Origin: a virus
Taxonomy: Duplodnaviria > Heunggongvirae > Uroviricota > Caudoviricetes
Virus record (IMG/VR): IMGVR_UViG_2778261229_000002
Coordinates: 1-34,933 of that record
Strand: one strand, 5' to 3'
Length of the DNA: 34,933 bases
In this document: positions 884 to 31,187 of the stretch, one piece after another
Layout: every line of letters starts with the position of its first letter
Position numbering within the stretch: the first letter of the stretch is position 1
Notes under the pieces: generated by a model
What the model saw: the letters and a program-made list of their open reading frames with translations, nothing else
Told to the model about the DNA's origin: nothing
Database searches by the model: none
Translations under genes and position numbers: made by a program

Positions 884-900
884 ATTACCTTTATGGTAAT
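884..900. promoter_or_regulatory. Operator-like 17-bp palindrome ATTACCTTTATGGTAAT
   Basis: Perfect inverted half-sites ATTACC/GGTAAT with a 5-bp spacer. Same motif recurs at about ten intergenic sites (see findings). Confidence 0.5.
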
Positions 901-936
901 TTGCAAAACGTGCTGGATAGCAAACAAATTATTTGA

Positions 937-956
937 TACTGTATAAATATACAGTT
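937..956. promoter_or_regulatory. LexA (SOS) box TACTGTATAAATATACAGTT
   Basis: Matches the CTGT-N8-ACAG core of the E. coli LexA consensus TACTGTATATATATACAGTA. Lies about 20 bp upstream of the ATG at 976. Confidence 0.7.
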
Positions 957-975
957 ATTGCATGGAGAAGATAAG

Positions 976-1233
976 ATGCAGCGGTATCACTATCCACTGG
1001 AAGACGGATTTACCGAAAGGATTCACACGCCGGGAGGCGTCAGGTCACTGGTGGAGGGATCGCACTTGATGAAATTACTCCGGGATCTCGATAAGGATGG
1101 ATTTAATGTCGATGGCCCACTTGCCGAACTGACTGCACTGATTAACTACGTCACCAGCTCACAGATGTCTATGCAGGATCTGCAAACACATCTCGACTAT
1201 TGTGCCGAACAATTACGAAAACAAACCACATAA
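976..1233 (+). CDS. Small protein paralogous to the C-terminal domain of the adjacent antirepressor; candidate SOS-inducible mini-antirepressor
   Basis: ORF-track frame 958..1233; I prefer the ATG at 976 preceded by GGAGAAG. Block HTPGGVRSLVEGSHLMKLLRDLDKDGFNVDGPLAELTALINYV...DLQTHLDY aligns by eye with [43 protein letters not shown]...DIQTHAEY in the 2692..3348 protein. Confidence 0.6.
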   Translation: MQRYHYPLEDGFTERIHTPGGVRSLVEGSHLMKLLRDLDKDGFNVDGPLAELTALINYVTSSQMSMQDLQTHLDYCAEQLRKQTT

Positions 1234-1255
1234 AGAAAAGGCCGCGAAAGCGGCC
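1232..1255 (-). terminator. Intrinsic terminator hairpin GGCCGCGAAAGCGGCC (T-run on the minus strand)
   Basis: Perfect 6-bp stem with 4-nt loop at 1240-1255. On the minus strand it is followed by TTTTCTTTATG, directly after the stop of the 1257..1763 gene. Confidence 0.5.
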
Positions 1256-1256
1256 A

Positions 1257-1763
1257 TTAACAGTCGTAAAATTCTGGGTCCCACAAACTTGCATCGCGCG
1301 GCATGGATTCTAACTTTTTCAGCCGCAAAATTCTGTCACACTCGACAACTAATTTTTGCTTCTGCTCGTCAATTTCTACTGTCTTATGCGCTGGTTCATC
1401 CCAATAATCCAGAAGGAAGGCATGGCGTTCAGATGTGACCAGATAAATCACATACACGTCACTGGTTGGGATCTTTTTATGCTTGTTAGTGGTCTTGTCT
1501 TTCTTCCCAGACGCCCAGTTTTTCCAGCATTGTTCCGTACCGCTCTCACCAAACTTGTCAGTATAGTTTCCGATGTTTAAGTGAACGTGGCGTATGTGAT
1601 ATTCCAGCATCTCTTTCGGTGGATCTCGAAACAGAGTGTCCTTTCCGAAATCCTTATGATGACCGTAGCGCCAGTGATCTATGAACGCGTTTTTGATAGG
1701 TATTAGCTCAGGGTCCTTCCCAAAAATTCCAGGGTGAACCAACCCCTGGAATTTATTCGGCAT
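1257..1763 (-). CDS. Hypothetical protein, 168 aa, His-rich (cargo cassette 1, distal gene)
   Basis: ORF-track frame 1257..1838; I prefer the internal Met (MPNKFQGLVHPG...) because the upstream gene stops at 1753, leaving a short gap. Contains YGHHKDFGKD...YHIRHVH. No family assignable from memory. Confidence 0.5.
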   Translation of the reverse strand: MPNKFQGLVHPGIFGKDPELIPIKNAFIDHWRYGHHKDFGKDTLFRDPPKEMLEYHIRHVHLNIGNYTDKFGESGTEQCWKNWASGKKDKTTNKHKKIPTSDVYVIYLVTSERHAFLLDYWDEPAHKTVEIDEQKQKLVVECDRILRLKKLESMPRDASLWDPEFYDC

Positions 1764-2268
1764 CGTCGTAGAGCTCCTGAGCCATGTCTTCAGCAGTGCG
1801 TGCAAACATCCTTCGAGAAATTGCATGCGATTTTTCAACAGACATCTTTGGTACTTCTCGCATTACAACCTCATGTGACGCTGTAGGCTTAAAAGATGAC
1901 TTATAATACCGCTTTATCATCTCAACTAATTGCTGCTTATCCTTGGAGCGTCCAGTTTCGATTAGCCTTGACTCGTAAGGTCGCATTATATTCGTTTGAC
2001 ATGAGGCACGATGAAGCTTATCTGCCAAGATTCCTTCAAAAGATGTGCCCCGGATTTTTAACAATGCCTCATGCTGGTCGTATTCAGTGATGAACATAAC
2101 CGGGTATTTTTGCTCAACTTCTTCATCATGAATCCTGATGGCATTGGCAGTTGCTATGGCAGCAGCATAAGCGGCTGCTTCAATCACCATCTTTTTCTCT
2201 TTTTCTTTTTCAGACTTTTTCAAGGTCAAGCGTCTATGCCTCATCGCTGCAACTCTCTTCGTGTTCAT
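1753..2268 (-). CDS. Hypothetical protein, 171 aa (cargo cassette 1, proximal gene)
   Basis: ORF-track frame 1753..2280 begins with TTG; I prefer the ATG at 2268 (MNTKRVAAMRHRR...) preceded by GGGGGTG. Basic/acidic low-complexity N-terminus (KKSEKEKEKK). No recognisable family. Confidence 0.5.
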   Translation of the reverse strand: MNTKRVAAMRHRRLTLKKSEKEKEKKMVIEAAAYAAAIATANAIRIHDEEVEQKYPVMFITEYDQHEALLKIRGTSFEGILADKLHRASCQTNIMRPYESRLIETGRSKDKQQLVEMIKRYYKSSFKPTASHEVVMREVPKMSVEKSHAISRRMFARTAEDMAQELYDDAE

Positions 2269-2279
2269 GGGCACCCCCA

Positions 2280-2327
2280 ACTACCTCTAGGGTAAACATT
2301 CTATCGAAAGTATACGCATACTGGCAA
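2280..2327 (-). promoter_or_regulatory. Promoter for cassette 1 (TTGCCA-18 bp-TAGAAT on the minus strand) with degenerate operator ACTACCTCTAGGGTAAA
   Basis: Reverse complement of 2298-2327 gives -35 TTGCCA and -10 TAGAAT with an 18-bp spacer. The operator-like palindrome at 2280-2296 sits over the predicted start site. Confidence 0.45.
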
Positions 2328-2376
2328 AAAAATAGGCAGGCATTTTCTGAAATGGGATCAATCAAACCACATAGGG

Positions 2377-2421
2377 TTGAAATAACGTGAGCTATGCATT
2401 TATTATTACCTTTACGGTAAA
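2377..2421 (+). promoter_or_regulatory. Rightward promoter (TTGAAA-18 bp-TATTAT) overlapped by operator ATTACCTTTACGGTAAA
   Basis: Hexamers at 2377-2382 and 2401-2406; operator at 2405-2421. Reads toward the structured leader and ant. Confidence 0.45.
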
Positions 2422-2511
2422 TTTACATCGCACTCCTCTTGTGCCATAGTAATCGGGCACTGGCAAAATCCAGTGCCGGGATTGGTCTCCCGGATTACTA
2501 AGTGGCGCATA

Positions 2512-2533
2512 CCACGCCAGACGTGGTTTTTTT
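2512..2533 (+). terminator. Intrinsic terminator CCACG-ccaga-CGTGG followed by TTTTTTT
   Basis: Hairpin at 2512-2526 plus a 7-T run, between the operator-controlled promoter and the ant start codon. Confidence 0.55.
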
Positions 2534-2691
2534 ATGCGTATAGCACAGTCATGCCAGAATTATGGTGGGCTGAATGGGGGTCCGAAAGGACGCCGGTACC
2601 ACTTAGGCCGGTAAGACCAACTCCGTTCAGTTCACCACCATCTGATTGGTCTCAGCGGTGGTGATGTAATTCGCTAAGTGGAGACGCCATC

Positions 2692-3348
2692 ATGAACGCT
2701 CAACTCATCCCCGTATTCAACGGCACTATATCTAACGAAACAGCCCTACTTTGTAATGCCCGCGATCTGCACGCTTTTTTAGGTGTTAAAAAGGTGTTTG
2801 CAGCATGGATTACAAATCGCATTTCAGAATACGAATTCATTGAAAATCAAGACTATATTTTGCTTTCCAATTTGGGAAAGCAAACATCTGGTAGAGGCGG
2901 CCACAACCGCAAAGAGTACCACCTCACCCTTGATACAGCCAAAGAGCTGGCGATGGTCGAGCGTAACGAAAAAGGTCGCCAGGTACGACGCTACTTCATT
3001 GAATGCGAGAAACGTTTAAGACAACAAGAAACAAAAGTGGAGAAGGTCTTGTCAGGCTTCATGCCAGCCATTATGGAGGCGATCAAGCTGGAAGACAAAA
3101 AAGAATACAGTGCCCCACTGAAGCCTGGCTACCGCAGTCTGATTCATTCTCCGTCTGGTGTTCTCGGCCTGACGGAGAACTCACTGCTGATGAATCTGCT
3201 GAACCAGTTACAGGAAGACGGGCACGACGTATCGGGCGCGGCGGCGGAGTTGACCACCATGTTCTGCTACATCGTCGGTGTGAGCAAATGCCTGCGTGAT
3301 ATCCAGACGCACGCGGAGTACATCAACGACAAAGCAGGGTTCTTCTGA
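2692..3348 (+). CDS. ant: Phage antirepressor (AntA/AntB-type N-terminal domain plus C-terminal domain)
   Basis: N-terminal block LIPVFNG...[35 protein letters not shown]...[33 protein letters not shown] matches the AntA/AntB antirepressor family as I remember it. GGAG lies 8 nt upstream of the ATG. Confidence 0.7.
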
Positions 3349-3356
3349 CAGAACGG

Positions 3357-3381
3357 AGGCACAGGGATGTGCCTTTAAAAT
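3357..3381 (+). terminator. Weak terminator-like hairpin AGGCACA-ggga-TGTGCCT followed by TTTAAAAT
   Basis: 7-bp stem immediately after the ant stop codon. The T-tract is short, so efficiency is uncertain. Confidence 0.35.
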
Positions 3382-3414
3382 AATCATTGGCGATGTGATG
3401 TAGATTCGCGTAAT

Positions 3415-3431
3415 ATTACCTTAAAGGTAAA
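3415..3431. promoter_or_regulatory. Operator-like palindrome ATTACCTTAAAGGTAAA
   Basis: Same motif family; lies 26 bp upstream of the ATG at 3457. Confidence 0.5.
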
Positions 3432-3456
3432 CCATGTGTTTACATGAGGAGGAGAT

Positions 3457-3666
3457 ATGGGATTTTGGTTCGCTCGTACAAAAACGAGGGATAATGCACC
3501 CAGCCCTCAGGCAAAAAATGCAGAAGTTCCGGCGTCAGCGCAGGTTAACAAGCGTGGTGGAGTATATATCTCATCACAGCAAATTTCTGAGCTTCCTGAG
3601 GTTAAGGAGATGCGTCGTCTCGCTGCTGCAATTGTTAAACAGGATCTTGCCACTGTAAGGAAGTAG
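3457..3666 (+). CDS. Hypothetical small protein, 69 aa (cargo cassette 2, first gene)
   Basis: Strong RBS GAGGAGGAG 3-11 nt upstream of the ATG. Stop TAG at 3664-3666 shares G3666 with the GTG start of the next gene. Confidence 0.55.
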   Translation: MGFWFARTKTRDNAPSPQAKNAEVPASAQVNKRGGVYISSQQISELPEVKEMRRLAAAIVKQDLATVRK

Positions 3667-4532
3667 TGTTGCTAGCTCTTCTAATTATCCCAATCCTGGT
3701 TAGCGGTTATATTATGATAACCGCTAACCAGTATCATTATTTCCGTTTATACCGACACGAAGGCCAGCTTCTTTATATGAAAGTAGCGGCACTAGGTACA
3801 TATTGCCTTGTTGCATCAGTAATAATTGCAGCCGCTATAAAATATAAATGGCCTGATTTTCACCTAGTTCACGATATGGTGGAAACTTTTAATGTAACAT
3901 CAAAACCAGAAACAGATAGAATTTACATGTGGCTGCTTCTTCTCTCAGCCACATCCATTTGCTTCTCTTTGTGTTATGTGTCTGTTGTGTGGGTGAAAGA
4001 TTTTCTTCTTGGTTGTTTTTATAAACGTGATATTTACGAGCAAAAAACAGAGGCAATGAAGGCCAGAGTACTGCGAAAAACTTACTCGCAAGGTTCTTTA
4101 GACTTACTATTGCTTGATGCTATTGAATCGGATCCTAAACGACCAATGTTGATTACTTTATCATCAAACAAAGTGTATGTTGGAATAATAAATGGTTCTG
4201 GTGAACCAACGGAAAATCAGGGTCCGCATCAGCACATATCTTTTGTTCCTTTAATGTCAGGATACAGGAACAAAGAAAACTTATCTGTCACATTCACTAA
4301 TGCTTATCCAGGAGAAATACAGGTCAAGCGGACTGCAGCAATAAGAGGAATTAGCAGAAAGAAAGTGCCAGGACTTGAGATCATGGTGTCTATTGACGAA
4401 ATAAGTTATATATCATGGTTTGATTTTGAAGTATATAAAGCAACAAATAACAAAGTAGAATCCAGGGGGCACGTTATTCGTGTTACCAAAAATGGAAGAA
4501 ATATATATCAAAGAAATAGCAAAAAAGAATAG
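3666..4532 (+). CDS. Hypothetical membrane protein, 288 aa, three N-terminal TM helices plus a soluble C-terminal domain of about 170 aa (cargo cassette 2)
   Basis: Hydrophobic segments LLALLIIPILVSGYIMI, VAALGTYCLVASVIIAAAI and IYMWLLLLSATSICFSLCYVSVVWV. Coding region is visibly AT-rich compared with flanking phage genes (by eye, not computed). Start could instead be the internal ATG about 40 nt downstream. Confidence 0.6.
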   Translation: MLLALLIIPILVSGYIMITANQYHYFRLYRHEGQLLYMKVAALGTYCLVASVIIAAAIKYKWPDFHLVHDMVETFNVTSKPETDRIYMWLLLLSATSICFSLCYVSVVWVKDFLLGCFYKRDIYEQKTEAMKARVLRKTYSQGSLDLLLLDAIESDPKRPMLITLSSNKVYVGIINGSGEPTENQGPHQHISFVPLMSGYRNKENLSVTFTNAYPGEIQVKRTAAIRGISRKKVPGLEIMVSIDEISYISWFDFEVYKATNNKVESRGHVIRVTKNGRNIYQRNSKKE

Positions 4533-4552: not shown

Positions 4553-4624
4553 GTAGACGAAACAAAAGTCAGTGCTACACTCATTGACGCCACATCGAGG
4601 TGGCTTATAGATGGAAATGTCACA

Positions 4625-4786
4625 ATGAAAAAAGCATTTGCTGCACTGTTCGTTTTGTTGTCTCTGGTAGCTTCAACTCAGGCCTTTGCCGGTCGTTGTC
4701 AGCACGACAGCGATACTGCCGCTGACGGCTCCCGCTGCGGTGGGCGTTCTGCGGATTCCCGCCCGGGCGGCGGTGGCATTCGTTAA
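4625..4786 (+). CDS. Small secreted peptide, 53 aa, with predicted signal peptide
   Basis: Translated by hand: MKKAFAALFVLLSLVASTQAFAGRCQHDSDTAADGSRCGGRSADSRPGGGGIR. Absent from the ORF track because it is under 60 aa. Candidate promoter TTGACG (4584-4589), 17 bp, TATAGA (4607-4612). No clear RBS. Confidence 0.4.
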   Translation: MKKAFAALFVLLSLVASTQAFAGRCQHDSDTAADGSRCGGRSADSRPGGGGIR

Positions 4787-4808
4787 AAACAAGGCCGCGA
4801 AAGCGGCC
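4784..4808 (-). terminator. Second copy of the GGCCGCGAAAGCGGCC terminator hairpin (T-run on the minus strand)
   Basis: Hairpin at 4793-4808; on the minus strand it is followed by TTGTTTTTAACG, directly after the stop of the 98-aa membrane-protein gene. Confidence 0.5.
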
Positions 4809-4809
4809 T

Positions 4810-4821
4810 GTGACATGTCAC
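4810..4821. repeat. 12-bp perfect palindrome GTGACATGTCAC (copy 1 of 3)
   Basis: Identical 12-mers at 4810-4821, 22023-22034 and 24324-24335. This copy overlaps the stop codon of the 4818..5114 gene. Confidence 0.6.
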
Positions 4822-5114
4822 GTTCCTTTTCTGAATGATAGCCGTTCGAAAAATGATGACATTCCACCGCAGACAATAGCAAAGATGATCCCACCAAAGA
4901 AGAGAAGGCCAGCCTGCCACCACTCCCACCGCCATACATCCACAGCACCAACCATACCAACAATCGCTCCAACAAATGGAATATAGCTCACGATGAAAGC
5001 AATGGGGGCTGCAATTATCCAGTGCAATCCCCACCATGATTCAAGCCCAGCCATAATTGCTGCCAACTGAAAAAGGCCAACGACGATATAAACAATGAAT
5101 CCTATCGCTTGCAT
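4818..5114 (-). CDS. Small integral membrane protein, 98 aa
   Basis: ORF track. At least three hydrophobic helices and a Trp-rich segment (VWRWEWWQ). Confidence 0.5.
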   Translation of the reverse strand: MQAIGFIVYIVVGLFQLAAIMAGLESWWGLHWIIAAPIAFIVSYIPFVGAIVGMVGAVDVWRWEWWQAGLLFFGGIIFAIVCGGMSSFFERLSFRKGT

Positions 5115-5126
5115 GTAGTCACCTAT

Positions 5127-5300
5127 TTACCCAGTAAAAATCAGAGGCCTCCCCTCAATAAGGCTTGCAACAAGAACTATTCCCTGCACAACAAAGATGA
5201 ACCAGCAAATAGCTTGAGTCTGAGGGTTAAGAAAATATTTGTAGCGGTCAATAAATAACAACCCACCAGAAATTATCACACTCAAAATAATTAAAAACAC
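5127..5300 (-). CDS. Small hydrophobic peptide, about 57 aa, two predicted TM helices
   Basis: Hand-translated from a GTG at 5298-5300 preceded by AGGAAG: ...FLIILSVIISGGLLFIDRYKYFLNPQTQAICWFIFVVQGIVLVASLIEGRPLIFTG. Under 60 aa, so not in the ORF track. Start codon is uncertain. Confidence 0.3.
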   Translation of the reverse strand: MFLIILSVIISGGLLFIDRYKYFLNPQTQAICWFIFVVQGIVLVASLIEGRPLIFTG

Positions 5301-5309
5301 AACACTTCC

Positions 5310-12102: not shown

Positions 12103-12647
12103 TATAATCCTCCGGGTAATCTGGTTCCTGCTGCTGCCCCGATTGGCGCAGGAGTGCTTTGAGTAAACGGACTCCACGTCCCACCAAACATCTGGTACGC
12201 ACCGTATGCCTTCAGAGGCGCAGTGAGCAATGTTGTTGCTGATCCCACATTCCCCTGTTTACGGGCTGAACTGGCTTCTGCTTTATAGTTGGCAGCCTGA
12301 ACCTGATAACCGTAAGCCTCGCGTTGCGCGTTATTCACCGTCGTCAGCGAATCAAGAGCGCCAAACTGGGCAGTGTCGCCAAATATATCCAGCGCGTTAC
12401 CTGTAGATAAATCAGCGCCGGTAGCCCCCATTGTCGCCGCCTGTGTACCAAGCCGCTGTCGGGTCTCTCTGCGCCGTTGCTCAGCTTCAGCGTTACCTCT
12501 GTTTATTGCATCATTTGCCTGAGCTGTGGCTATATCTGCGTTCGCTTCTGCAACCTTCGAGGCATACTTTCCCTGTTGGTACTGGGTGTATGCCTGAATG
12601 CCACTCATGGCGAGCATTGCGCCACCAGCAATAACCGGATCGCACAT
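12102..12647 (-). CDS. Virion structural protein, 181 aa (core protein candidate)
   Basis: ORF track; tightly packed within the structural operon; Ala/Gln-rich. Confidence 0.5.
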   Translation of the reverse strand: MCDPVIAGGAMLAMSGIQAYTQYQQGKYASKVAEANADIATAQANDAINRGNAEAEQRRRETRQRLGTQAATMGATGADLSTGNALDIFGDTAQFGALDSLTTVNNAQREAYGYQVQAANYKAEASSARKQGNVGSATTLLTAPLKAYGAYQMFGGTWSPFTQSTPAPIGAAAGTRLPGGL

Positions 12648-19391: not shown

Positions 19392-21067
19392 TGTGATTGC
19401 CCACCCTGACCACTAACTGCATTCGCCATAGCTGACAAAACACTCGGATCCGAAGTTTTAGCTTCGCTTAGCGTCTTGGCACCCTGTGCCGCCGCCATCC
19501 CCATCGCCATCATTTGTTGCTGCTGTTGTTGCTGTGCCCGTTGCTGGCGAGCCTGCTCAACCTGTTCCTGCGGAACAATGACGGTTGGAGACACTCCGGA
19601 CATATCAGCGAATGCATCGATCGCCTGATCAACGTTGAGTTTGTCGAGAGCTTCTGGTTTCGCTTGCGCAAGTTGACCAATGAAGTTAACCGTGGACGCC
19701 AGACTGGACAGGCCGATAGACTTCTGCGCCTGAGCCATGACGGAAATGTATTCGACCTTCAGGGGCATGCCTTCCATCGCGTCAGGCGGTGGCGGCAGCA
19801 TGTTTTTGCGCACCATCATCGAGAAAGCGCGGTCAATGAGAGGATTAAGACATTCGTCGTTCAGACGCTCCAGAACCGGCCCCAACATCAGAAGTTTTTC
19901 TTCTTTCATTTCGATCACCGCTTCAACAGGCATCGAGCGGGTATTGATGTTCTGCAACATCATGAACAGATCGACAAAGTAGGCGCTGTTAATGATTTGA
20001 CGAGTGTCCTGAATGTCTGCCACCAAATCTGCTGTACTGGGGTTAACCAGATAAGCAGGCCTGAAGCCATCCTGACCAGTAATCTGATCGATATACGTGA
20101 TGTCGCCAGGAAGAAGGGAGGCGCGCTGATTCTTGAGGGAAGTCGGAGCAACCATCGGCGGATTGGTGGCTTTATCAATCAACTGCGACTTGCGCTTCTG
20201 GAGAAGCTGCAATGCCTTAACAGGTCCAAGCGCCAGCATACCCGGGCATGATGATCCATAAACATCTTCGCCGTTAACTTCCCAGCGCGGAGCCATAATT
20301 GGAAACTCATCGAATCCGGACTCACGCAACAACTTGTCGTTATCTCCACCAACCTCGTAATAAACCGATTTGAATGGCTTGTTCTTGCTATCCAGCTTCG
20401 ATGTATCGCGGTCAATGTTCGGGTAAACCGAATGCATCACTTCGATCCACTTCTCGTAGGTGCCGCTTTCCCACATGCTTTTTACGGATTTGCTGACGTT
20501 ATTTAGCCCGAACTCCTGAACAAGCTGACGAACAGTCATAGAGAACTTGCGAAAACAGGTGTCAACACTGCCACGAGGTGAGTTAGCCAGGTAGTAACTG
20601 CCTATCGGGAATGGCATTGTGCGAATGATGTCCTCGTCATCCTCCAGCACTGCCATTGCACCAGTGCTGTATGTGCCGAGGCTTCCGTATAACTGCGGAA
20701 GAGACTGGTAGAGATTCGACTTATTGAACATATCGTTCATGCGGTTCTGAACTGCCTCAAGCCACAACTTAACAGGGCCATAATCCATCATTTCAGGATC
20801 TGGCGTAGCCAGGCGAAACCACGGACGCGCGGGGCTTGTGATGCCTGACATCATGCCGCTGGCGAGAGTGCGCGCCGCCATAGTCCCGGTCGAATCAATA
20901 ATGCGTGTATTGCGCCGATCGTTACGGTTGGCCTCAGAAGTCAGAAAGCGGGAACCACGCGGGTTGATGTAATCACTCAACTCGCGCCAGTGCGGCTCGA
21001 ACGACTGACGCTCGCTTTCAAGTTGTGCGAACTGTTTGTTCAATCGCTCTTTAGTTGTTTCCGCCAT
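19388..21067 (-). CDS. Portal protein, 559 aa
   Basis: Size and position immediately downstream of the terminase genes; C-terminal Gln-rich tail (QQRAQQQQQQQMMAMGMAAAQG). Confidence 0.7.
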   Translation of the reverse strand: MAETTKERLNKQFAQLESERQSFEPHWRELSDYINPRGSRFLTSEANRNDRRNTRIIDSTGTMAARTLASGMMSGITSPARPWFRLATPDPEMMDYGPVKLWLEAVQNRMNDMFNKSNLYQSLPQLYGSLGTYSTGAMAVLEDDEDIIRTMPFPIGSYYLANSPRGSVDTCFRKFSMTVRQLVQEFGLNNVSKSVKSMWESGTYEKWIEVMHSVYPNIDRDTSKLDSKNKPFKSVYYEVGGDNDKLLRESGFDEFPIMAPRWEVNGEDVYGSSCPGMLALGPVKALQLLQKRKSQLIDKATNPPMVAPTSLKNQRASLLPGDITYIDQITGQDGFRPAYLVNPSTADLVADIQDTRQIINSAYFVDLFMMLQNINTRSMPVEAVIEMKEEKLLMLGPVLERLNDECLNPLIDRAFSMMVRKNMLPPPPDAMEGMPLKVEYISVMAQAQKSIGLSSLASTVNFIGQLAQAKPEALDKLNVDQAIDAFADMSGVSPTVIVPQEQVEQARQQRAQQQQQQQMMAMGMAAAQGAKTLSEAKTSDPSVLSAMANAVSGQGGQSQ

Positions 21068-21081: not shown

Positions 21082-21288
21082 TTACTGACCAAGCAGCGTT
21101 TTACCGCTGGTATTAGCGGTTGATGTGTCGCCCTGAGAACCGGTAAGCAGCGTAGAACTACGACCAGCAGCAGCGCGACGGCGACGTGTTTCTTCGTCGC
21201 GGGCATCAACAACGGCGGCATCCTGCTCCTGTGGTGCTGCCTGAACTTCTGGTGTTGCAGGCACTGATGGTGAGCTACCCATGCACAT
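21082..21288 (-). CDS. Hypothetical small protein, 68 aa, upstream of portal
   Basis: ORF track. Arg-rich and low complexity; could be non-coding. Confidence 0.3.
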   Translation of the reverse strand: MCMGSSPSVPATPEVQAAPQEQDAAVVDARDEETRRRRAAAGRSSTLLTGSQGDTSTANTSGKTLLGQ

Positions 21289-21356
21289 ATCAATGACTCC
21301 GTACGCAATTAAATTATTACCAATTTAACCACATATGATTTATTTATCGTAGAATG

Positions 21357-21394
21357 TTGACATTTAACGCGTGAATTATTACCTTTCAGGTAAC
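21357..21394 (+). promoter_or_regulatory. TTGACA box plus operator ATTACCTTTCAGGTAAC upstream of the tRNA insert
   Basis: TTGACA at 21357-21362; operator palindrome at 21378-21394. I could not find a convincing -10 hexamer at correct spacing. Confidence 0.35.
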
Positions 21395-21715
21395 CAAAGA
21401 GCTCATTCTGGTTACTAACCTGACTGGCTTGTCGTTAAATTAAACAGGTGGAGTGAGCTTTTATTTTGAGCAGTACGGCGTATGGCACATGCGCCGATAG
21501 CGGTCTGGATACGTTTAAGGGGCACCCTCCCTTGCTCGGGCAAACGAACCAGGTAGCCGGAATGTGTAAGTCGAGCGGTTTTATTCCGCGCACGGGGATT
21601 CACCATCCCGGCGATTCGGTGTGACGCCTCGGAAGAGACGAGGGTACAACGATGAGAGCATTTATGGAGCCGCGACAAAGTGTGGCGCCTTAACAGGCTA
21701 AGTGCTCTCAGCGTT

Positions 21716-21792
21716 GTGGCATTAGCTCAGTTAGACAGAGCAACCGCCTTCTAAGCGGTTGGTCGCAGGTTCGAATCCTGCATGCCACGCCA
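21716..21792 (+). tRNA. tRNA-Arg (anticodon UCU), 77 nt, argU-like
   Basis: Cloverleaf folded by hand: acceptor GTGGCAT/ATGCCAC, D-stem GCTC/GAGC, anticodon stem ACCGC/GCGGT with loop CTTCTAA, T-arm GCAGG-TTCGAAT-CCTGC, discriminator G and encoded CCA. Anticodon loop and T-arm are identical to E. coli argU as I recall it. Confidence 0.85.
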
Positions 21793-21836
21793 GAATCACG
21801 CCTAAGGACCGTGATGCCAGAAGTTCCAGGTGCTTG

Positions 21837-21878
21837 GCGGTGATGGTTTCCCTTGAAGGACTATCACCGCCCTTTTTA
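21837..21878 (+). terminator. Terminator downstream of the tRNA (GGCGGTGATGG ... CTATCACCGCC followed by CTTTTT)
   Basis: 11-bp stem with one mismatch and a 13-nt loop, followed by a T-run, about 45 nt after the tRNA 3' end. Confidence 0.5.
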
Positions 21879-23584: not shown

Positions 23585-24213
23585 TGATTGCCATCCTGAC
23601 GTTCTTTGAGTCGCTTCCTGGCTGCTGCTATGCGATCAGCAATTGTCACATTCACATTAACATCCAGACGTTCTTTGAACGCGTTAACGTCGACGTGCTT
23701 ACCGATGAGCTCGAGGTTTTTCACCTTGTCGGGCCATTTCACCTTCTTCAGGATATGCTCGACATCCTCAACAGAGAAATCCGCCTCGCCATTCTCTTTT
23801 TGCAGGGAAGCCTGGGTTGTCTTGATGGTAGCGATATCCATAGCACTGAGAGAGGTACGCCAGACCTTCGGCCATTCAGCGATCGGCTTCATCCCGCCGT
23901 CATCGTTCAGTATATCCAGCACGTCCATCTGGTCGATCTCCACCAGGCGCATGAGAACGTAATCAGCACTGACGCGCATTCGTTTGTTGCGCTCCTCCAT
24001 CAACTCGGCAATCCGTTTTTGAATGCGTTCATCGCGCATCATGACACTGGCTTTAACTGCCGCTGTATTTGGGGAGAATCCTGCGTTAATCGCTGCCTGA
24101 GTCTGGTTTTCAGGCGTTTTGATGTATGACTGGCAATAAGCCTCCTGCATTGCTGTTAGTGGCTTAAATTGCGTTGATTTGCGTTTATAGGTTTTAGGTT
24201 CAGCAGGCATCAT
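23581..24213 (-). CDS. terS: Terminase small subunit, about 210 aa
   Basis: ORF-track frame 23581..24291; I prefer the start at the MM pair (24208-24213), because the upstream 26 codons run through a tandem DNA repeat. HTH-like block QEAYCQSYIKTPENQTQAAINAGFSPNTAAVKASVMM is typical of P27-type small terminases. Stop overlaps the terL start. Confidence 0.65.
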   Translation of the reverse strand: MMPAEPKTYKRKSTQFKPLTAMQEAYCQSYIKTPENQTQAAINAGFSPNTAAVKASVMMRDERIQKRIAELMEERNKRMRVSADYVLMRLVEIDQMDVLDILNDDGGMKPIAEWPKVWRTSLSAMDIATIKTTQASLQKENGEADFSVEDVEHILKKVKWPDKVKNLELIGKHVDVNAFKERLDVNVNVTIADRIAAARKRLKERQDGNQ

Positions 24214-24220
24214 AACCACC

Positions 24221-24252
24221 GTGGTAATAGTTACCGTTGTGGTAATAGTACC
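24221..24252. repeat. Tandem 15-bp direct repeat GTGGTAATAGTTACC / GTGGTAATAGTACC, each an internal palindrome
   Basis: Two adjacent copies separated by GTT, immediately upstream of the terS start. The half-sites GGTAA/TTACC are the operator half-sites in inverted arrangement. Confidence 0.5.
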
Positions 24253-24282
24253 ATGCAAAATAAAGCCGCCATAGTTGGCGGC
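24253..24282 (-). terminator. Intrinsic terminator on the minus strand (GCCGCC-aactat-GGCGGC followed by TTTATTTTG)
   Basis: Hairpin at 24265-24282 with a T-rich tract on the minus strand, between the 115-aa gene and terS. Confidence 0.5.
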
Positions 24283-24323
24283 AGTATTCAAAACCCGTCA
24301 AATTCATCATGCATAATCTACTC

Positions 24324-24335
24324 GTGACATGTCAC
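24324..24335. repeat. 12-bp palindrome GTGACATGTCAC (copy 3 of 3)
   Basis: Exact copy overlapping the stop codon of the 24332..24679 gene. Confidence 0.6.
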
Positions 24336-24679
24336 ACTATTAATTTCGTTTCATGCCAGCCTTTAGTCACCCAGCATTGCGAGTCACCATTACACGGGCA
24401 TGAATTAACTGGAACTCTCTCGCCGCACTTACCGCAACGTTTTCTGCTGATCGATTTTATACGCCCGCGCACACGTGCATCATCCTGGCGGATCAGCAGC
24501 GCGATGTACTCGGCCATTTCATAGGGATCGCGACCAGGGCGCCGGGCGGCGCAGTTCCGCGCTAGCATTTCCTGCTCCTGCTTATCCAGCACCAGTTCAA
24601 TTTTGCGCTCACCGGCGGCGGACTGCCGAGCGCGCTGCGCGGCTTTGCGTTCTGCGGGGGATTTAGCCACGAATCGCAC
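24332..24679 (-). CDS. Hypothetical protein with C-terminal Cys-rich (zinc-ribbon-like) motif, 115 aa; candidate late-gene regulator
   Basis: C-terminus RKRCGKCGERVPVNSCPCNGDSQCW. Last gene before a terminator and the terminase genes, which is the positional analogue of a lambdoid late regulator. No homology asserted. Confidence 0.45.
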   Translation of the reverse strand: MRFVAKSPAERKAAQRARQSAAGERKIELVLDKQEQEMLARNCAARRPGRDPYEMAEYIALLIRQDDARVRGRIKSISRKRCGKCGERVPVNSCPCNGDSQCWVTKGWHETKLIV

Positions 24680-24785
24680 TCCACGCCAGATTGATTAATG
24701 ACTCCCAGGTAATATAAACCCGGATACCAGCAGCCAGGCCGAAACCAATCACCATGGCATAAAGCAGAGCGTTGCACTTGTTCAT
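24663..24785 (-). CDS. Possible small hydrophobic peptide, 40 aa
   Basis: ATG overlaps the TGA of the upstream gene (ATGA junction); peptide MNKCNALLYAMVIGFGLAAGIRVYITWESLINLAWSAIRG has one predicted TM helix. May be non-coding. Confidence 0.25.
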   Translation of the reverse strand: MNKCNALLYAMVIGFGLAAGIRVYITWESLINLAWSAIRG

Positions 24786-26945: not shown

Positions 26946-27592
26946 GACTGAACTCCTTTGCGAATCTGTTCCGCCCATTCTTCAAGGGATTTCTCCGCAT
27001 ATTCACCGGACAGGCCATCAATCGGATGCGATTCATTAGCTAACTCTTCTTTTGCTGACAGAATCATGCGTGTAACGTCGAAAACTTCAGCCAAAGGCTT
27101 ATTGATAAATCCGTGATTGAACGCAGCAGCAAGACGGCTGGCGGTATAGTTAATCCCCTCGTTGCGTGCTTCCGCACGAATTTCAGCCAGAAAAGCATCG
27201 GTAGCTGGGGTTTCGATATCGTTAATTTCAGGAAGAATCTCTTCCCATGTGGCGATATCGCCATTCAAATGCCATCCGGCAATTCCACTGGAGTTATCCG
27301 CAACACTGCGAACGGCTTCAATAGTTTCGAGCATTACCGCATTCTCCGCCGCAAGCGCCGAAAACTTCTCGTGTGCCAACTTAACAGATGCATCAGCCTG
27401 CTTAATTGACTCAATCGCTTTCTGCTGGTCTTCGGCCAGCGCATTAGCACGCACCAGTTGCACTTCCAGTTGCGTTGCCAAATCGCTGATCAGCTTTGCC
27501 ACACTGCGCATATCAACGGCACCACATTCTGCTTTCAGTTCCGAAGCCATCTCATGCCCGGCGGCAACTAACCCTTTGATATTACTTTCCAT
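26942..27592 (-). CDS. Hypothetical coiled-coil protein, 216 aa (nin/Ea-type region)
   Basis: ORF track; Ala/Glu/Leu-rich heptad-like sequence. No family assigned. Confidence 0.45.
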   Translation of the reverse strand: MESNIKGLVAAGHEMASELKAECGAVDMRSVAKLISDLATQLEVQLVRANALAEDQQKAIESIKQADASVKLAHEKFSALAAENAVMLETIEAVRSVADNSSGIAGWHLNGDIATWEEILPEINDIETPATDAFLAEIRAEARNEGINYTASRLAAAFNHGFINKPLAEVFDVTRMILSAKEELANESHPIDGLSGEYAEKSLEEWAEQIRKGVQS

Positions 27593-27653
27593 CTTTACCC
27601 TCGCTTATCCACATAACTTATTGATTACATTGATAACTAAAAAGATCGTCGAT

Positions 27654-28001
27654 TCAGAACTCTTCGATGTTCCAGCCACCACCTGCTTTCTTTGGCTTAA
27701 CCGTTACCCCGATGATTCGGAACGGATACTGATCTGCGGCGACTTTGGTTTTCACTCTGGCGTCATCGGTCCAGAATCCCCCTTTCACTTCGTGCAGTTC
27801 CATCTCGCCGGTGGCGAGCTTCACAGCAAAATCTGGCGTATAGAACGTGTTGTCAGCTAACCGCAGCTTGATACCCTCAAATCGATACCAGACGATTTCT
27901 CCTGCACGTTTACGCAGCTCAAGGTGCTGGCAATACGCAGATTCTGTTTTGTTCATCTGGCCTGTTTTGAGTCGACCAAGAGCCTGTATCTGTTTTCTCA
28001 T
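27654..28001 (-). CDS. Small PD-(D/E)XK-type nuclease-like protein (DUF1064-like), 115 aa
   Basis: Motif spacing FYTPDFAV ... ELHEVKG fits a PD-(D/E)xK core. Family name is recalled, not verified. Confidence 0.4.
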   Translation of the reverse strand: MRKQIQALGRLKTGQMNKTESAYCQHLELRKRAGEIVWYRFEGIKLRLADNTFYTPDFAVKLATGEMELHEVKGGFWTDDARVKTKVAADQYPFRIIGVTVKPKKAGGGWNIEEF

Positions 28002-28065
28002 GATTTACCCCTGAGGTAATTAAAAACCACATAAGACACGAAATCAATAGATCTTAGAACATTTT

Positions 28066-28082
28066 ATTACCTAGCAGGTAAT
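28066..28082. promoter_or_regulatory. Operator-like palindrome ATTACCTAGCAGGTAAT
   Basis: Perfect half-sites; located between the P-like gene and the downstream nin-region genes. Confidence 0.5.
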
Positions 28083-28118
28083 TATCAAGACGTAAAAAAA
28101 TGCGCTATCGCGCTGGTA

Positions 28119-28919
28119 TTACTTGATAAATCCTGCCGCCTTTCCCCGCCTGTATTCCTCCATCAGCCACTGCGCCGGTGTTATTCCCCCCAGGGTAGCG
28201 GCGTTAGGCATACACCCGAAACTTCGCCCTGGTGGATGGTAAACGTCTCTCCCTGTGTCCGGAGGCGTACTCATGGGTTCTGGCTTTGCCTGTATGCTGA
28301 TCACCGGATCGGGTATCTGCTGTCCGGAAGCCACCTTTTTCGCCCAATCATCAAGCAGCCTGCGCGCGTGTTTCTCAACCTCAATCTCGCTAAGCTGGCG
28401 CTGATACATTGCACGGCGGGTATCACATACGACCCAGTACATAACCGGATGCCGCCACGGGAATCTTTCGGGACCACCAGGATATAAACTTTTTTCCTTG
28501 CTGTACCGGTGAAACTCCGCCATCACATCGTCAATGGTGACGCCAAGAACCATCTTGCTGTCTTTGCACCACTTGATAAATTGCCCTGGCGACGGCCAGA
28601 ACGGAGATTCACTGGCGCGGGCGTGGCGCATACCAGCAGAAACCTGTTCACGGGTTCGGATCCCACCTTCGGCAAACGCAGCAATCCACTGCTGTTTTGC
28701 AGCAACTTCCTGCTCTGGCGTCTTCAGGTTGGTTACCACTGCCGCCGGAAACAGCTGTTTCAGCTGTTTGAAAAGGGCATCAACAAGCCTCTCTGCTGAC
28801 ATGTTCACCACATTGTCATTGTTGACGTACTGATGCTCATAACCTGACATGCGAGAAAGGGCTTCTCCGTCACGGTTTTGTATCGCGGTAAAAACGTTGT
28901 TCACAAGAAATCCTCCCAC
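28119..28919 (-). CDS. Replication protein P-like (helicase loader), 266 aa
   Basis: Block QQWIAAFAEGGIRTREQVSAGMRHARASESPFWPSPGQFIKWCKD aligns closely with lambda P as I recall it (RRQWVLAFRENGITTMEQVNAGMRVARRQNRPFLPSPGQFVAWCRE). Confidence 0.7.
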   Translation of the reverse strand: MGGFLVNNVFTAIQNRDGEALSRMSGYEHQYVNNDNVVNMSAERLVDALFKQLKQLFPAAVVTNLKTPEQEVAAKQQWIAAFAEGGIRTREQVSAGMRHARASESPFWPSPGQFIKWCKDSKMVLGVTIDDVMAEFHRYSKEKSLYPGGPERFPWRHPVMYWVVCDTRRAMYQRQLSEIEVEKHARRLLDDWAKKVASGQQIPDPVISIQAKPEPMSTPPDTGRDVYHPPGRSFGCMPNAATLGGITPAQWLMEEYRRGKAAGFIK

Positions 28920-29716
28920 GCTTCAGGGCTGTTCCAGTGCGGAACGTTGTTATCAGGTAATGTTGATTGCTTCTGTCTGCTAATCTGCAGCCGCCTTGCT
29001 AGCTTCTGCTCCCACTGTGCCTGATGGTATGCCTTACCCTCAGCCATCCAGTAAATTCTGAACTCTGCAAGTTCCTGTGCCGTTGGCAGACTGTCCAGGT
29101 AGATCCCCTGCAATGAGCTTTTCCGAAGAAAGTCATCTGATGGCTGCCATTGTTCATGCATGACAAATTTGCCTAATTGCCCTGGCCCACCAGGAGGAAC
29201 AAAGTTATTCATCACGGCGTTGTTTGCGCCGGGGTCATGATGCACAGAATCCCCGTTTTTTGTCCTGCTCTCCCTCTCTTGGTTAAATGACTGGTTATAT
29301 GACTGGTTCTGGATCCCGTTTTTGGGATCATTCAACATCCCGTTTTTGGGATCATTCAACATCCCGTTTTTGGGTATATTCCCGTTTTCGGTAACATTAC
29401 CGTTTTCGGGTTCATTGCCCCCCTCTCGGTTGCCTTTAATGTTCCCGTTTTTGGTTATATTAAGAGAGAAAACCCGCACTCTTTTTGTCGCTCCCTTTCT
29501 CTCCCCGGTATCTGAAATAAGCCCCATTTTCATGAGCGATATAAGTCCGGCCTGCACGGTTTTTTTATTCAGGCAAGTGTCTTTAACGAGGCGTTCTATG
29601 CTGGGGTAGCAGAGGTTATATTCATCGGCTCTGTCAGCCATCGAGAGCAGTATGAGCTTTAATGACGAGCTACCTGGATCTGTCTCCCAGGCCCAATCTG
29701 TTGCATGTCTGCTCAT
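28901..29716 (-). CDS. Replication initiator (O-like) with internal origin iterons, 271 aa
   Basis: Position upstream of the P-like gene; DNA iterons inside the coding region produce the repetitive Asn/Gly-rich segment (NGMLNDPKNGMLNDPKNG). Confidence 0.6.
   Translation of the reverse strand: MSRHATDWAWETDPGSSSLKLILLSMADRADEYNLCYPSIERLVKDTCLNKKTVQAGLISLMKMGLISDTGERKGATKRVRVFSLNITKNGNIKGNREGGNEPENGNVTENGNIPKNGMLNDPKNGMLNDPKNGIQNQSYNQSFNQERESRTKNGDSVHHDPGANNAVMNNFVPPGGPGQLGKFVMHEQWQPSDDFLRKSSLQGIYLDSLPTAQELAEFRIYWMAEGKAYHQAQWEQKLARRLQISRQKQSTLPDNNVPHWNSPEAWEDFL
29314..29461. repeat. Replication-origin iteron array, about six copies of CCCGTTTTTGGG(A/T)T-like units, including an exact 24-bp tandem duplication
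   Basis: TCCCGTTTTTGGGATCATTCAACA at 29314-29337 and again at 29338-29361, followed by degenerate copies up to about 29461. Lies inside the O-like gene, as in lambda ori. Confidence 0.7.
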
Positions 29717-29731
29717 GATTAATCTCCGCTA

Positions 29732-29932
29732 TCAGCTTGAATGTTGTGGGGAGGAATTAATCATGATCTGCTTAATCTCTGCCCTGATACGACGGTTTGA
29801 TTCCATGGTGCACTCAACACAGTGTCCGTTGTAAACCCAGCGTTCACTGTCATGTCCGTGCTTACATGTTTTTCCGGTGTAGTAGCGTTTAAGTCCGCGC
29901 TTTGCGGCATCAATACGTGTAATGATTTCCAT
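29732..29932 (-). CDS. Small Cys/His-rich protein, about 66 aa
   Basis: ORF-track frame 29732..29995; I prefer the internal ATG at 29932 (MEIITRIDAAKRG...). Contains CKHGH and CVEC. Confidence 0.4.
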   Translation of the reverse strand: MEIITRIDAAKRGLKRYYTGKTCKHGHDSERWVYNGHCVECTMESNRRIRAEIKQIMINSSPQHSS

Positions 29933-30011
29933 GGTAAGCCCTGTTATTAGTATTGGGATTACGGTTATTTTGTGCTGACACAAAAAAAAGATCAACCATA
30001 TTTGGTTTTTT

Positions 30012-30028
30012 ATTACCTTTGAGGTACG
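30012..30028. promoter_or_regulatory. Operator-like site ATTACCTTTGAGGTACG (degenerate right half)
   Basis: Motif family member located between the Cro-like gene terminator and the downstream gene. Confidence 0.35.
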
Positions 30029-30032
30029 AATA

Positions 30033-30060
30033 GATATGAAAAGACCGCCGGATGGCGGTC
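30033..30060 (-). terminator. Intrinsic terminator after the Cro/CII-like gene (GACCGCC-atcc-GGCGGTC followed by TTTTCATATCT on the minus strand)
   Basis: Perfect 7-bp GC-rich stem at 30043-30060 with a T-tract on the minus strand. Positional analogue of lambda tR1. Confidence 0.5.
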
Positions 30061-30082
30061 TACAGAGGGTTGTGGCTGGATA

Positions 30083-30313
30083 TCATGAGTAGAAGAAGTA
30101 TGCCAGTTCTGCTTTTGAGCGCAGCCATTGTCTTGATTTACAGGCTTTAAAAAGCCCATCCATCAATACCTTACCTGGCATTTTGCGCTTACCTGTTAAG
30201 TGAGTCTGGATATAGTGACTCGTCGTTCCGGCTTCCTGTGCGAAGGCTTCACGCTCATCCGGAGTAAGTGCAAGCCAGTGCTTTTTGAAATCGAAATGTC
30301 CGTTATCGCTCAT
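30083..30313 (-). CDS. Small Cro/CII-like HTH regulator, 76 aa
   Basis: Divergent from the repressor gene across an operator-bearing intergenic region; short basic protein with HTH-like segment (AFAQEAGTTSHYIQTHLTGKRK). Confidence 0.5.
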   Translation of the reverse strand: MSDNGHFDFKKHWLALTPDEREAFAQEAGTTSHYIQTHLTGKRKMPGKVLMDGLFKACKSRQWLRSKAELAYFFYS

Positions 30314-30345
30314 AGCTATTGCCTGATATTTATTTCAGATAATAA

Positions 30346-30413
30346 ATATTCACCTATAAGGTAACAAAAATCAAGGATAGTTACCCATGAGGTGCATTTA
30401 CCTGTTGGGTAAT
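30346..30413. promoter_or_regulatory. OR-like divergent control region: three operator sites and a minus-strand promoter TTGATT-17 bp-GAATAT
   Basis: Operators TTCACCTATAAGGTAAC (30349-30365), AGTTACCCATGAGGTGC (30380-30396, degenerate) and TTTACCTGTTGGGTAAT (30397-30413). Promoter read on the minus strand from plus coordinates 30346-30374, with an operator in the spacer. Confidence 0.5.
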
Positions 30414-30467
30414 ATTGCTTTAAATTGAATCATCTTCTGATTCAGATATGAGGCGATTTTCCAGAAA

Positions 30468-31052
30468 ATGAAAAGTATCCAGGACGTCCGCAGGCAAAAT
30501 CTCAACGACTTGATCGACCGTGAATTCAATGGTGTTCAGACGCGGATGGCTGAAAAACTTGGAACTCAGGCAAATCTGGTAAACCGCTGGGCTCTTGGCA
30601 AGAAGGTTATCGGCGACCAGGTTGCGCGAAAAATTGAAGCTGCCGCCAATAAACCCCGTAACTGGCTTGATATCGATCGCTCGCTTTCTCAGGAAGGTTT
30701 TCAGCCTGTCGGACCAAGCGACATTGGTCAACTGGCGGCTCACAACCTGGAACGCTGGATGAGCGAAAGCCGCGACCTTTCAACGCAGGGAAAACTTCAC
30801 CGCGCATCCGGCGTCGCCCAGGTAACAATCAGCCGCCTGTTAAACAATGAGGTCAGCGTTTCCATTTCCACCCTGGAGAATGTTGCATCCGCATTTGGGC
30901 GTCACGGATATGAATTACTGATTCACCCGCACGACCCCGCGACTATCAACTATGACCGCTCGCGCTACGCATTGTTACCTGAAACAGAGAAGGCAAAGAT
31001 CGAAAGTTACATTGAATTTGTCATCAACCAGAACGAAAAAAACAAACAATAA
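30468..31052 (+). CDS. Phage repressor with two tandem XRE-type HTH domains and no S24 peptidase domain, 194 aa
   Basis: Two HTH-like segments (QTRMAEKLGTQANLVNRWALGKK and LHRASGVAQVTISRLLNNEVSVS). No Ala-Gly/Ser-Lys autocleavage module visible. The opposite-strand ORF 30420..30743 is judged spurious. Confidence 0.65.
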   Translation: MKSIQDVRRQNLNDLIDREFNGVQTRMAEKLGTQANLVNRWALGKKVIGDQVARKIEAAANKPRNWLDIDRSLSQEGFQPVGPSDIGQLAAHNLERWMSESRDLSTQGKLHRASGVAQVTISRLLNNEVSVSISTLENVASAFGRHGYELLIHPHDPATINYDRSRYALLPETEKAKIESYIEFVINQNEKNKQ

Positions 31053-31073
31053 AATCATATTTTTCAGTAAGTA

Positions 31074-31097
31074 AGCCGCCTTATGGCGGCTTTTTTA
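31074..31097 (+). terminator. Intrinsic terminator after the repressor gene (AGCCGCC-ttat-GGCGGCT followed by TTTTTT)
   Basis: Perfect 7-bp stem with 4-nt loop and six T, 22 bp after the repressor stop. Confidence 0.7.
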
Positions 31098-31108
31098 TTG
31101 CCTATTCG

Positions 31109-31187
31109 ATTACCTAACGGGTAATTTTTTTAACTCATATCTATTGACATCAAACCAGATACGCATAATTATTACCTCAACGGTAAC
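31109..31187 (+). promoter_or_regulatory. OL/PL-like region: operators ATTACCTAACGGGTAAT and ATTACCTCAACGGTAAC flanking a TTGACA box
   Basis: Operators at 31109-31125 and 31171-31187; TTGACA at 31144-31149 with an A/T-rich -10 candidate (CATAAT at 31164-31169). Reads into the exo/recT operon. Confidence 0.5.

Follow-up and report, generated by a model that had tools for sequence, protein, structure and literature searches.

A single 17-bp palindrome, ATTACC-N5-GGTAAT, recurs along a 34,933-nucleotide stretch of phage DNA (IMG/VR record IMGVR_UViG_2778261229_000002, positions 1 to 34,933, referred to here as the window), and the question that it raises is whether one regulator acts through it on units as different as the immunity switch, the late genes and two cassettes of accessory, or “cargo”, genes. 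By megablast the window belongs to a Uetakevirus, a temperate podophage of the epsilon15/phiV10 type. Taken as a whole, the number and placement of the sites, their conservation in relatives and the homologies of the proteins encoded beside them are best explained if the palindromes are operators of the phage repressor, Rep, which very probably silences nearly every promoter through them.

The initial annotation had listed twelve sites found by eye, and the sequence given for each was present at 12 of 12. It had also described several of them as perfect palindromes; this holds for the six-base arms at three sites only and does not extend to the whole 17-mers, because the five-base spacer varies. 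Three good sites had been missed (24212-24228, 24230-24246 and 28004-28020), and the tally of operators now stands at 14 to 15 sites at nine loci in 34.9 kb. Exact copies of ATTACC-N5-GGTAAT number three against 0.01 expected, and copies with at most two mismatches number 15 against 0.82 expected, neither count being reached in any of 100 shuffled sequences. In order to avoid circularity, an independent position weight matrix (PWM) was trained on 29 sites from epsilon15, Tyrion and the Klebsiella phage BUCT711 only. It detects 14 sites in the window at 8 bits or more (0.69 expected; maximum of 4 in 200 shuffles) and 12 at 12 bits or more (0.09 expected). All 14 lie in non-coding DNA, which makes up 8.0% of the window according to the curated gene list (binomial P = 7e-14 for the 12 strongest). 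The scan against shuffled sequence that had been proposed as a check on the motif thus places its frequency far above chance. The central base of the spacer is A or T in 12 of the 14 window sites, and in 96% of the symmetrised counts from the 29 training sites.

Two additional matches with two mismatches each, at 12104-12120 and 32755-32771, were considered as extra operators and rejected as chance occurrences, being located inside genes and having no positional counterpart in epsilon15. Both fall below 8 bits with the independent PWM; they score 9.7 and 7.3 bits respectively with a PWM built from the window's own sites.

The sites are given below with the promoters on which they lie. These promoters are sigma-70-like consensus predictions scored around each site rather than mapped starts, and mismatches are counted against ATTACC-N5-GGTAAT.

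884 to 900: operator, exact consensus, between the divergent small antirepressor (ant) gene and the tailspike gene, at about -65 to -49 and -78 to -62 from the two flanking divergent predicted promoters.
2280 to 2296: degenerate operator, two mismatches, at -5 to +11 of the cassette 1 promoter TTGCCA-18-TAGAAT (2327 to 2298, minus strand).
2405 to 2421: operator, one mismatch, at -8 to +8 of promoter TTGAAA-18-TATTAT (2377 to 2406, plus strand), upstream of the leader of a second ant gene.
3415 to 3431: operator, one mismatch, at -8 to +8 of promoter TTGGCG-18-TAATAT (3387 to 3416, plus strand), ahead of cargo cassette 2.
21378 to 21394: operator, one mismatch, overlapping the -10 of TTGACA-17-TACCTT (21357 to 21385, plus strand), between the head-gene operon and a tRNA-Arg unit.
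24212 to 24228 and 24230 to 24246: two abutting operators between a terminator (24282 to 24265) and the terS ATG (24210, minus strand), that at 24230 lying at -8 to +8.
28004 to 28020 and 28066 to 28082: operator pair, 62 bp apart, where the replication genes meet DUF1064; 28066 (exact consensus) fills the spacer of TTGATA-16-TAAAAT, and 28004 lies at -8 to +8 of TTGATT-17-TTTAAT (minus strand).
30012 to 30028: weak operator, two mismatches, after the terminator of the cro-like gene, at about -68 to -52 from the predicted promoter of 29732 to 29932 (minus strand).
30349 to 30365: switch operator, three mismatches, in the spacer of the cro-like promoter.
30380 to 30396: switch operator, four mismatches, weak in this clade.
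30397 to 30413: switch operator, one mismatch, over the -35 of the predicted rep promoter.
31109 to 31125 and 31171 to 31187: operator pair, 62 bp apart, flanking the early promoter TTGACA-17-AATTAT (31144 to 31172, plus strand); 31109 (exact consensus) lies at -70 to -54 and 31171 (one mismatch) at -8 to +8.

The units that carry operators are therefore the rep/cro-like switch, the early recombination operon, the replication-nin junction, terS, the head operon with the divergent tRNA unit, the tailspike/ant region, the second ant gene and the two swappable cargo cassettes. The register on the promoters is recurrent: besides the five operators at -8 to +8, of which four share their first two bases with the last two of the -10 hexamer (TATTAT/TACC at 2405, TAATAT/TACC at 3415, TTTAAT/TACC at 28004 and AATTAT/TACC at 31171), others fill the promoter spacer (28066, 30349) or cover the -35 (30397). 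Several of these promoter-operator modules have a terminator-like hairpin ahead of them (at terS, and downstream of the cro-like gene, rep and the replication genes), so that each module heads its own transcription unit. At the first of these places, on the minus strand of 24265-24335, a promoter-like site (24335 to 24306) is met within about 25 nt by the strong terminator at 24282-24265, beyond which come the two operators and terS; the layout resembles the PR'-tR' late control of lambda, and it lies downstream of a phrog_536 “transcriptional regulator” gene (24332-24679).

The spacing of the paired sites is also regular. The centre-to-centre gap is 62 bp in both wide pairs (31109/31171 and 28004/28066), and this gap, which is 63 bp once, is found at both loci in 7 of 7 genomes with the intervening DNA diverged. 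The pairs at terS and at the switch abut, at 17-18 bp. No convincing IHF-like match was seen by eye inside the 62-bp pairs. For the single sites at 884, 21378 and 30012, a search for full partner operators at 62 bp yielded half-sites only: GGTAAT at 62 bp for 21378, ATAACC at 60 bp for 30012 and one at 50 bp for 884. As partner operators these lone half-sites are no more than suggestive.

A second motif, ATATGTGGTT, was observed mostly near the operators, with 8 copies at one mismatch or less against 2.1 expected. Its copies include 845-854, 1224-1233, 2365-2374, 21327-21336, 28025-28034 and 29998-30007 in the window, and 2989, 24752 and 35954 in the related genome labelled L003. Copies precede the units for the tailspike, the head, nin and, in epsilon15, lysis, and in many cases an ATTACC or GGTAAT half-site follows after 4-5 nt; the motif may belong to an atypical promoter core or be bound by a second regulator. 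An invariant block, ATTCTATTACC...AACC..ATATG, is shared by 829-850 and the aligned genomes ahead of the tailspike gene, and in it a lone ATTACC/GGTAAT half-site, 50 bp from the 884 operator, overlaps a -10-like hexamer, TAGAAT.

The same layout is found in related phages. According to megablast, the immunity, replication and recombination region of the window is about 97-98% identical to phiV10, phiv142-3, PAS61 and others, and identity to relatives is patchier in the accessory region at the left end. The orientation of the window is the reverse of the phiV10 record, its left end falling inside the tailspike gene (start 780, minus strand) and its right end in the early recombination/methylase region. 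The motif occurs 15 times in phiV10 against 1.2 expected, 18 times in epsilon15 against 0.9 and 18 times in SPC32H against 1.0; Tyrion and Klebsiella phage BUCT711 have it too, and positions match across the relatives, phiv142-3 included. Wherever regions were aligned (ant/tailspike, early promoter, nin junction, switch and upstream of gp3), the half-sites are invariant, the spacers variable and the flanks drifting. Thus both half-sites at 884 are kept in 9 genomes, apart from a GGTGAT change in TL-2011b and phiV10, with a variable spacer; at 21378 the half-sites and the TTGACA are invariant in 6 genomes; the 28004/28066 spacing and half-sites are kept in 6 genomes and the 31109/31171 pair in 5. 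The weaker sites have counterparts as well: 2280 is shared with EC.W1-9 and E. coli E275, degenerate sites occupy the place equivalent to 30012 in relatives, and the aligned counterpart of 30380 is strong in epsilon15, SPC32H and the Klebsiella phage.

For epsilon15, the type species, both the recurrence of the palindrome and its assignment to the repressor are already on public record, and the core finding is for this reason minor as a discovery. The epsilon15 entry (GenBank AY150271.2 / RefSeq NC_004775.2) carries seven protein_bind features marked “repressor / lysogeny”, which are exactly its perfect-consensus copies of the motif. The early promoter has three of them; single copies precede terS and gp3, another separates gp19 (homologous to ant) from the tail fibre gene, and the last follows the replication genes. 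Each of the seven matches a window site or site cluster in position. The site at 884 is orthologous to 19895-19911, 21378 to 2931-2947, and 24212/24230 to 11-27 and 29-45, where the record marks 12-27; 35906-35922 corresponds to the 28004/28066 pair, and 32554 and 32616 are the annotated counterparts at the early promoter. The phiV10 record has no operator annotation. A full-text literature search on the motif and on Uetakevirus operators returned nothing relevant, the primary epsilon15 and SPC32H papers lying outside its reach.

Relatives also show conserved operator-like sites before the lysis cassette, together with a conserved two-mismatch site, ATTACCYTAAAGGTATA, upstream of int, in two regions that lie beyond the window. 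The lysis- and int-side sites are at 24691 and 26869 in the genome labelled L001, 24703 and 26881 in L003, 24781 and 26959 in L004, and 26407 and 28567 in L006.

The protein most plausibly responsible for reading these sites is encoded at the switch, where the divergent rep and cro-like genes have the three switch operators between them, overlapping both predicted promoters.

30468 to 31052, plus strand: repressor Rep, 194 amino acids.
30083 to 30313, minus strand: Cro-like protein, 76 amino acids, phrog_35 “transcriptional repressor”.

Rep is 100% identical to phiV10 gp40, to the ZX5 repressor and to the repressors of at least ten other E. coli phages. It is a full-length homologue of the Rep of SPC32H (PDB 5D50; E = 4e-42, 42% identical), residues 1-190 aligning to 5D50_A and residues 89-190 to the 5D4Z fragment. 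In the SPC32H protein the N-terminal domain binds DNA, the middle domain serves dimerisation, and a loop-type C-terminal domain forms the tetramer and also binds the antirepressor (PMC9986798); the protein represses lytic genes, by a mode of repression called poorly characterised in 2023 (PMC9986798), and as a tetramer it recognises palindromic sites, with each DNA-binding pair drawn from different dimers (bioRxiv paper). To judge by the alignment, the predicted domain order of Rep matches this one: DNA-binding, dimerisation, then tetramerisation and Ant binding. The description of Rep as a “double-HTH” (helix-turn-helix) repressor stands at the level of sequence, where an HTH_3 domain is found at 106-147 and a weak YdaS-like HTH at 21-61; in the SPC32H homologue, however, the second HTH-like domain is described as serving dimerisation, and DNA binding is assigned to the N-terminus (PMC9986798). 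No match to the self-cleaving Peptidase_S24 domain was found in Rep, and its C-terminal part is HTH_3-like, resembling the SPC32H tetramerisation fragment. The repressor identical to Rep in ZX5, when overexpressed, cut endolysin and holin transcripts by 99.97-99.99% (PMC9782041).

The repressors of the relatives fall into four clades that are 42-78% identical to Rep, with that of epsilon15 at 42%. Even at 42-45% overall identity, the N-terminal block NLVNRW, a putative HTH recognition element, is invariant across the clades. That a single regulator, the repressor next to the switch, would act at the dispersed promoters had been proposed in the initial annotation, and the proposal gains support from the sites at the switch, the shared positions, the NLVNRW block, the epsilon15 labels and the registers at the cargo promoters.

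Release of the repressor would depend on antirepressors, of which the window encodes two, each behind a distinctive leader.

937 to 956, plus strand: LexA box TACTGTATAAATATACAGTT, overlapping the -10 of the predicted ant promoter.
976 to 1233, plus strand: small antirepressor Ant, 85 amino acids, phrog_450.
2457 to 2533, plus strand: isrK-like small RNA, Rfam gathering-level match, 67.7 bits.
2558 to 2642, plus strand: C4 antisense RNA, Rfam gathering-level match, 61.2 bits.
2692 to 3348, plus strand: second antirepressor, 218 amino acids, with an AntA N-terminal domain and an SPC32H-Ant-like C-terminal domain.

The small Ant matches over its full length chain E of PDB 5D50, the “Anti-repressor protein” of SPC32H (E = 3e-47). 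The LexA box is near-consensus and is the sole match in the window, where none is expected; its TACTGT/ATACAGT arms are kept in 9 of 9 genomes, with an extra base in the Klebsiella phage. Kim and Ryu are said to have shown LexA control of ant in SPC32H in 2013. The box takes the place, -12 to +7, at which other promoters of the phage carry a Rep operator. It is also odd, for a pair of proteins that must bind each other, that the small Ant, with few substitutions along its length, is far closer to its SPC32H counterpart (E = 3e-47) than Rep is to its own (42% identical). The second antirepressor combines a PF08346 domain (E = 4e-26) with residues 137-213 that match 5D50_E (E = 5e-14). The isrK-like and C4 RNAs lie between the operator at 2405-2421 and the start of its gene at 2692, an arrangement that constitutes a c4-ant module like that of P1/P7 immI. 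A terminator-like hairpin is present in this leader at 2511-2527.

From the sites, their enrichment, their registers on predicted promoters, their conservation and these homologies we infer binding, bridging, repression and an order of events as follows. Rep would be a tetramer with two pairs of N-terminal HTH domains, by homology with SPC32H Rep, each pair reading one ATTACC-N5-GGTAAT site. Two operators could then be bridged by one tetramer, whether they abut (17-18 bp) or stand 62 bp apart around a promoter. In the lysogen, Rep would cover the -10/+1 region or the -35/-10 spacer, and all operator promoters would be shut together. DNA damage would take LexA off the box at 937-956 and the small Ant would be made; it would strip Rep from the DNA, and all units would be released together. 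The second Ant, once released from behind the isrK and C4 RNAs, would reinforce the switch, and the Cro-like protein would probably use the switch operators to turn rep off.

The cargo genes bear most directly on the reach of such a regulon.

1257 to 2268, minus strand: cargo cassette 1, a 171-amino acid gene (1753 to 2268) and a 168-amino acid gene (1257 to 1763).
3457 to 4532, plus strand: cargo cassette 2, proteins of 69 and 288 amino acids (phrog_5739 and phrog_3630, PHROGs of unknown function).

The expectation that the repressor would control these genes along with the switch is supported by position: the operator of each cassette covers a good predicted sigma-70 promoter at -8 to +8 or -5 to +11, where a bound protein would repress. 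The region from the tailspike to the virion genes is a swap zone. The 3415 operator is kept in TL-2011b, EC.W1-9 and phiv142-3, and the cargo downstream of it differs; in E. coli B1 and TL-2011b a non-homologous cassette with its own perfect operator and unrelated flanks replaces cassette 1. The presence of operators on non-homologous cassettes supports the view that cargo is wired into the same regulon. The wiring is not universal, as no operator was found at the genes at 4625-5300, nor at the P22-type arc-ant cassette of TL-2011b.

The families of cassette 1 are phrog_9503 and phrog_1651, again of unknown function, and no cargo protein had a match in Pfam, NCBIfam or PADLOC. A homologue of the downstream gene of cassette 1 is named “type II toxin-antitoxin system YafO family toxin” by RefSeq; if the cassette is a toxin-antitoxin pair, then it would be repressor-controlled rather than, or besides, autoregulated. 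The 288-amino acid protein of cassette 2 looks membrane-spanning by eye, with hydrophobic N-terminal stretches, and a large-database search placed it with 28 homologue clusters, all “hypothetical”. None of these searches gave a function that bears on the counter-defence or host-takeover roles suggested in the initial annotation, which are purely speculative.

Several observations weigh against Rep as the regulator at every site. The promoter scanner found overall no excess of promoter-like sites relative to shuffled sequence. An operator upstream of the core promoter, as at 884, 30012 and 31109, does not necessarily repress when it alone is occupied. At 30397 a strong site overlies the predicted promoter of rep itself, which implies autorepression. 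For DNA-binding pairs about 100 Å apart, a loop of 62 bp leaves little slack. Finally, conservation of the Cro-like protein equals that of the motif, and this protein may also use the sites.

The last point leads to the best surviving alternative, in which the dispersed sites serve the Cro-like protein above all; it would damp early and accessory promoters in lytic growth, with Rep confined to the switch and early promoters. The Cro-like protein co-varies with the motif as well as Rep does, being 59-84% identical across the clades with an invariant HTH-like block, AGTTSHYIQ-HLT, and in lambda-type switches Cro and the repressor share operators. We nevertheless consider this account unlikely, though it deserves to be taken seriously, and it is not exclusive with the Rep model. 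The submitters of the epsilon15 record assigned the dispersed sites to the repressor, the paired and abutting geometry suits a tetramer with two DNA-binding pairs, and overexpression of the repressor alone silences the lysis genes of ZX5 (PMC9782041).

A less probable alternative, which we rate as improbable, is that another phage or host regulator reuses the motif at the sites away from the switch. The window does encode other predicted regulators (the phrog_536 protein at 24332-24679, a PerC-like activator at 33800-34099 and an AlpA-like protein at 33442-33690), and both 884 and the head-operon side of 21378 are at positions typical of activators. These regulators do not adjoin the site cluster, unlike rep, and the switch and dispersed sites fit one PWM with the same half-sites. 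We know of no E. coli regulator with an ATTACC-N5-GGTAAT site.

It is very unlikely that the palindromes are RNA hairpins, for instance processing or stability elements in 5' leaders. A stem of 6-7 bp is possible, at about -4.5 kcal/mol, and several sites would be transcribed at +1 to +8. Such stems are weak, however, and it is the arm sequence that is conserved rather than pairing alone; departures from the consensus affect one arm only and are uncompensated, which is what a protein-bound sequence, and not a stem in RNA, should show. Transcripts from the adjacent promoter would not include 28066 and 30349, which lie in promoter spacers, or 31109, which lies upstream. Chance recurrence in AT-rich intergenic DNA, which the AT-richness of both the intergenic regions and the motif arms might suggest, has a negligible probability, given that 0 of 100 to 200 shuffles reach the counts and that the positions are conserved across genera.

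Rep operators throughout the window would mean that the epsilon15-like serotype-converting prophages of E. coli, Salmonella, Enterobacter and Klebsiella are kept silent by one repressor at nearly every promoter, not by a single switch. The YafO-like pair, the pair of 69- and 288-amino acid proteins, the tRNA-Arg unit and the second antirepressor are predicted to be off in the lysogen and on at induction, and the operator layout provides a concrete genomic test for the loop-forming tetramer that has been proposed for SPC32H-type repressors. What is added to the epsilon15 record is the operator-bearing interchangeable cargo slots, the genus-wide 62-bp pairing, and a second antirepressor under an operator behind isrK and C4 RNAs. 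We put forward only tentatively, at somewhat less than an even chance, the broader claim that in Uetakevirus the whole genome, including late genes and cargo slots, forms a one-repressor regulon with shared operator specificity, 62-bp Rep clamps and a two-tier antirepressor cascade, into which incoming cargo needs an operator to be admitted.

The unit on the other side of the 21378 operator from the head genes is one of those predicted to be released.

21082 to 21288, minus strand: gp3 homologue, of the head-gene operon.
21716 to 21792: tRNA-Arg(TCT), in its own unit, divergent from the head genes.

In this unit (21357-21871, plus strand) the tRNA follows a leader of about 330 nt and is itself followed by three terminator-like hairpins; in epsilon15, Tyrion and the Klebsiella phage other genes occupy the slot.

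Among known systems, epsilon15 is the closest, with the same 17-bp motif at orthologous positions and a homologous repressor. It differs in that its repressor is only 42% identical to Rep and in that only the exact sites are annotated, those of the switch being left out; it also lacks the AntA-type second ant gene and the two cargo cassettes, and because it lacks these genes it has no operators at the corresponding places. The Rep-Ant switch of SPC32H (PDB 5D4Z, 5D50) has the same Rep and Ant homologues, the conserved LexA box before ant, and the same operator motif and layout; in the window phage there is in addition the second Ant-domain protein, whose gene is under an operator and follows the isrK and C4 RNAs.

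More distant systems resemble this one in organisation. The C1 repressor of P1 likewise has scattered 17-bp operators, and an ant gene there lies behind a C4 RNA under an operator (immI, c4-icd-ant). The P1 operators are asymmetric, however, and C1 is not of the HTH_3/XRE type and has no sequence relation to Rep, which is of that type and whose sites are symmetric; moreover, the late genes of P1 are controlled through an activator and not by direct operators. The CI/Cro switch of lambda shares the divergent repressor and cro-like genes, the three 17-bp operators between them and a second set of operators at the other early promoter, and the cooperative, looping binding proposed here for Rep would be a further likeness. 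Lambda operators are confined to two clusters, whereas here they occupy nine loci that include late and accessory units, and induction of the SPC32H type proceeds through a LexA-controlled antirepressor, as against the RecA-stimulated self-cleavage of the repressor in lambda. The inverted repeats of Streptomyces phage phiC31 and the stoperators of mycobacteriophage L5 are likewise dispersed repressor sites that silence a prophage. The proteins are unrelated. The L5 stoperators are asymmetric and oriented and are located inside transcribed regions, whereas the sites of the window are symmetric, intergenic and placed on predicted promoters.

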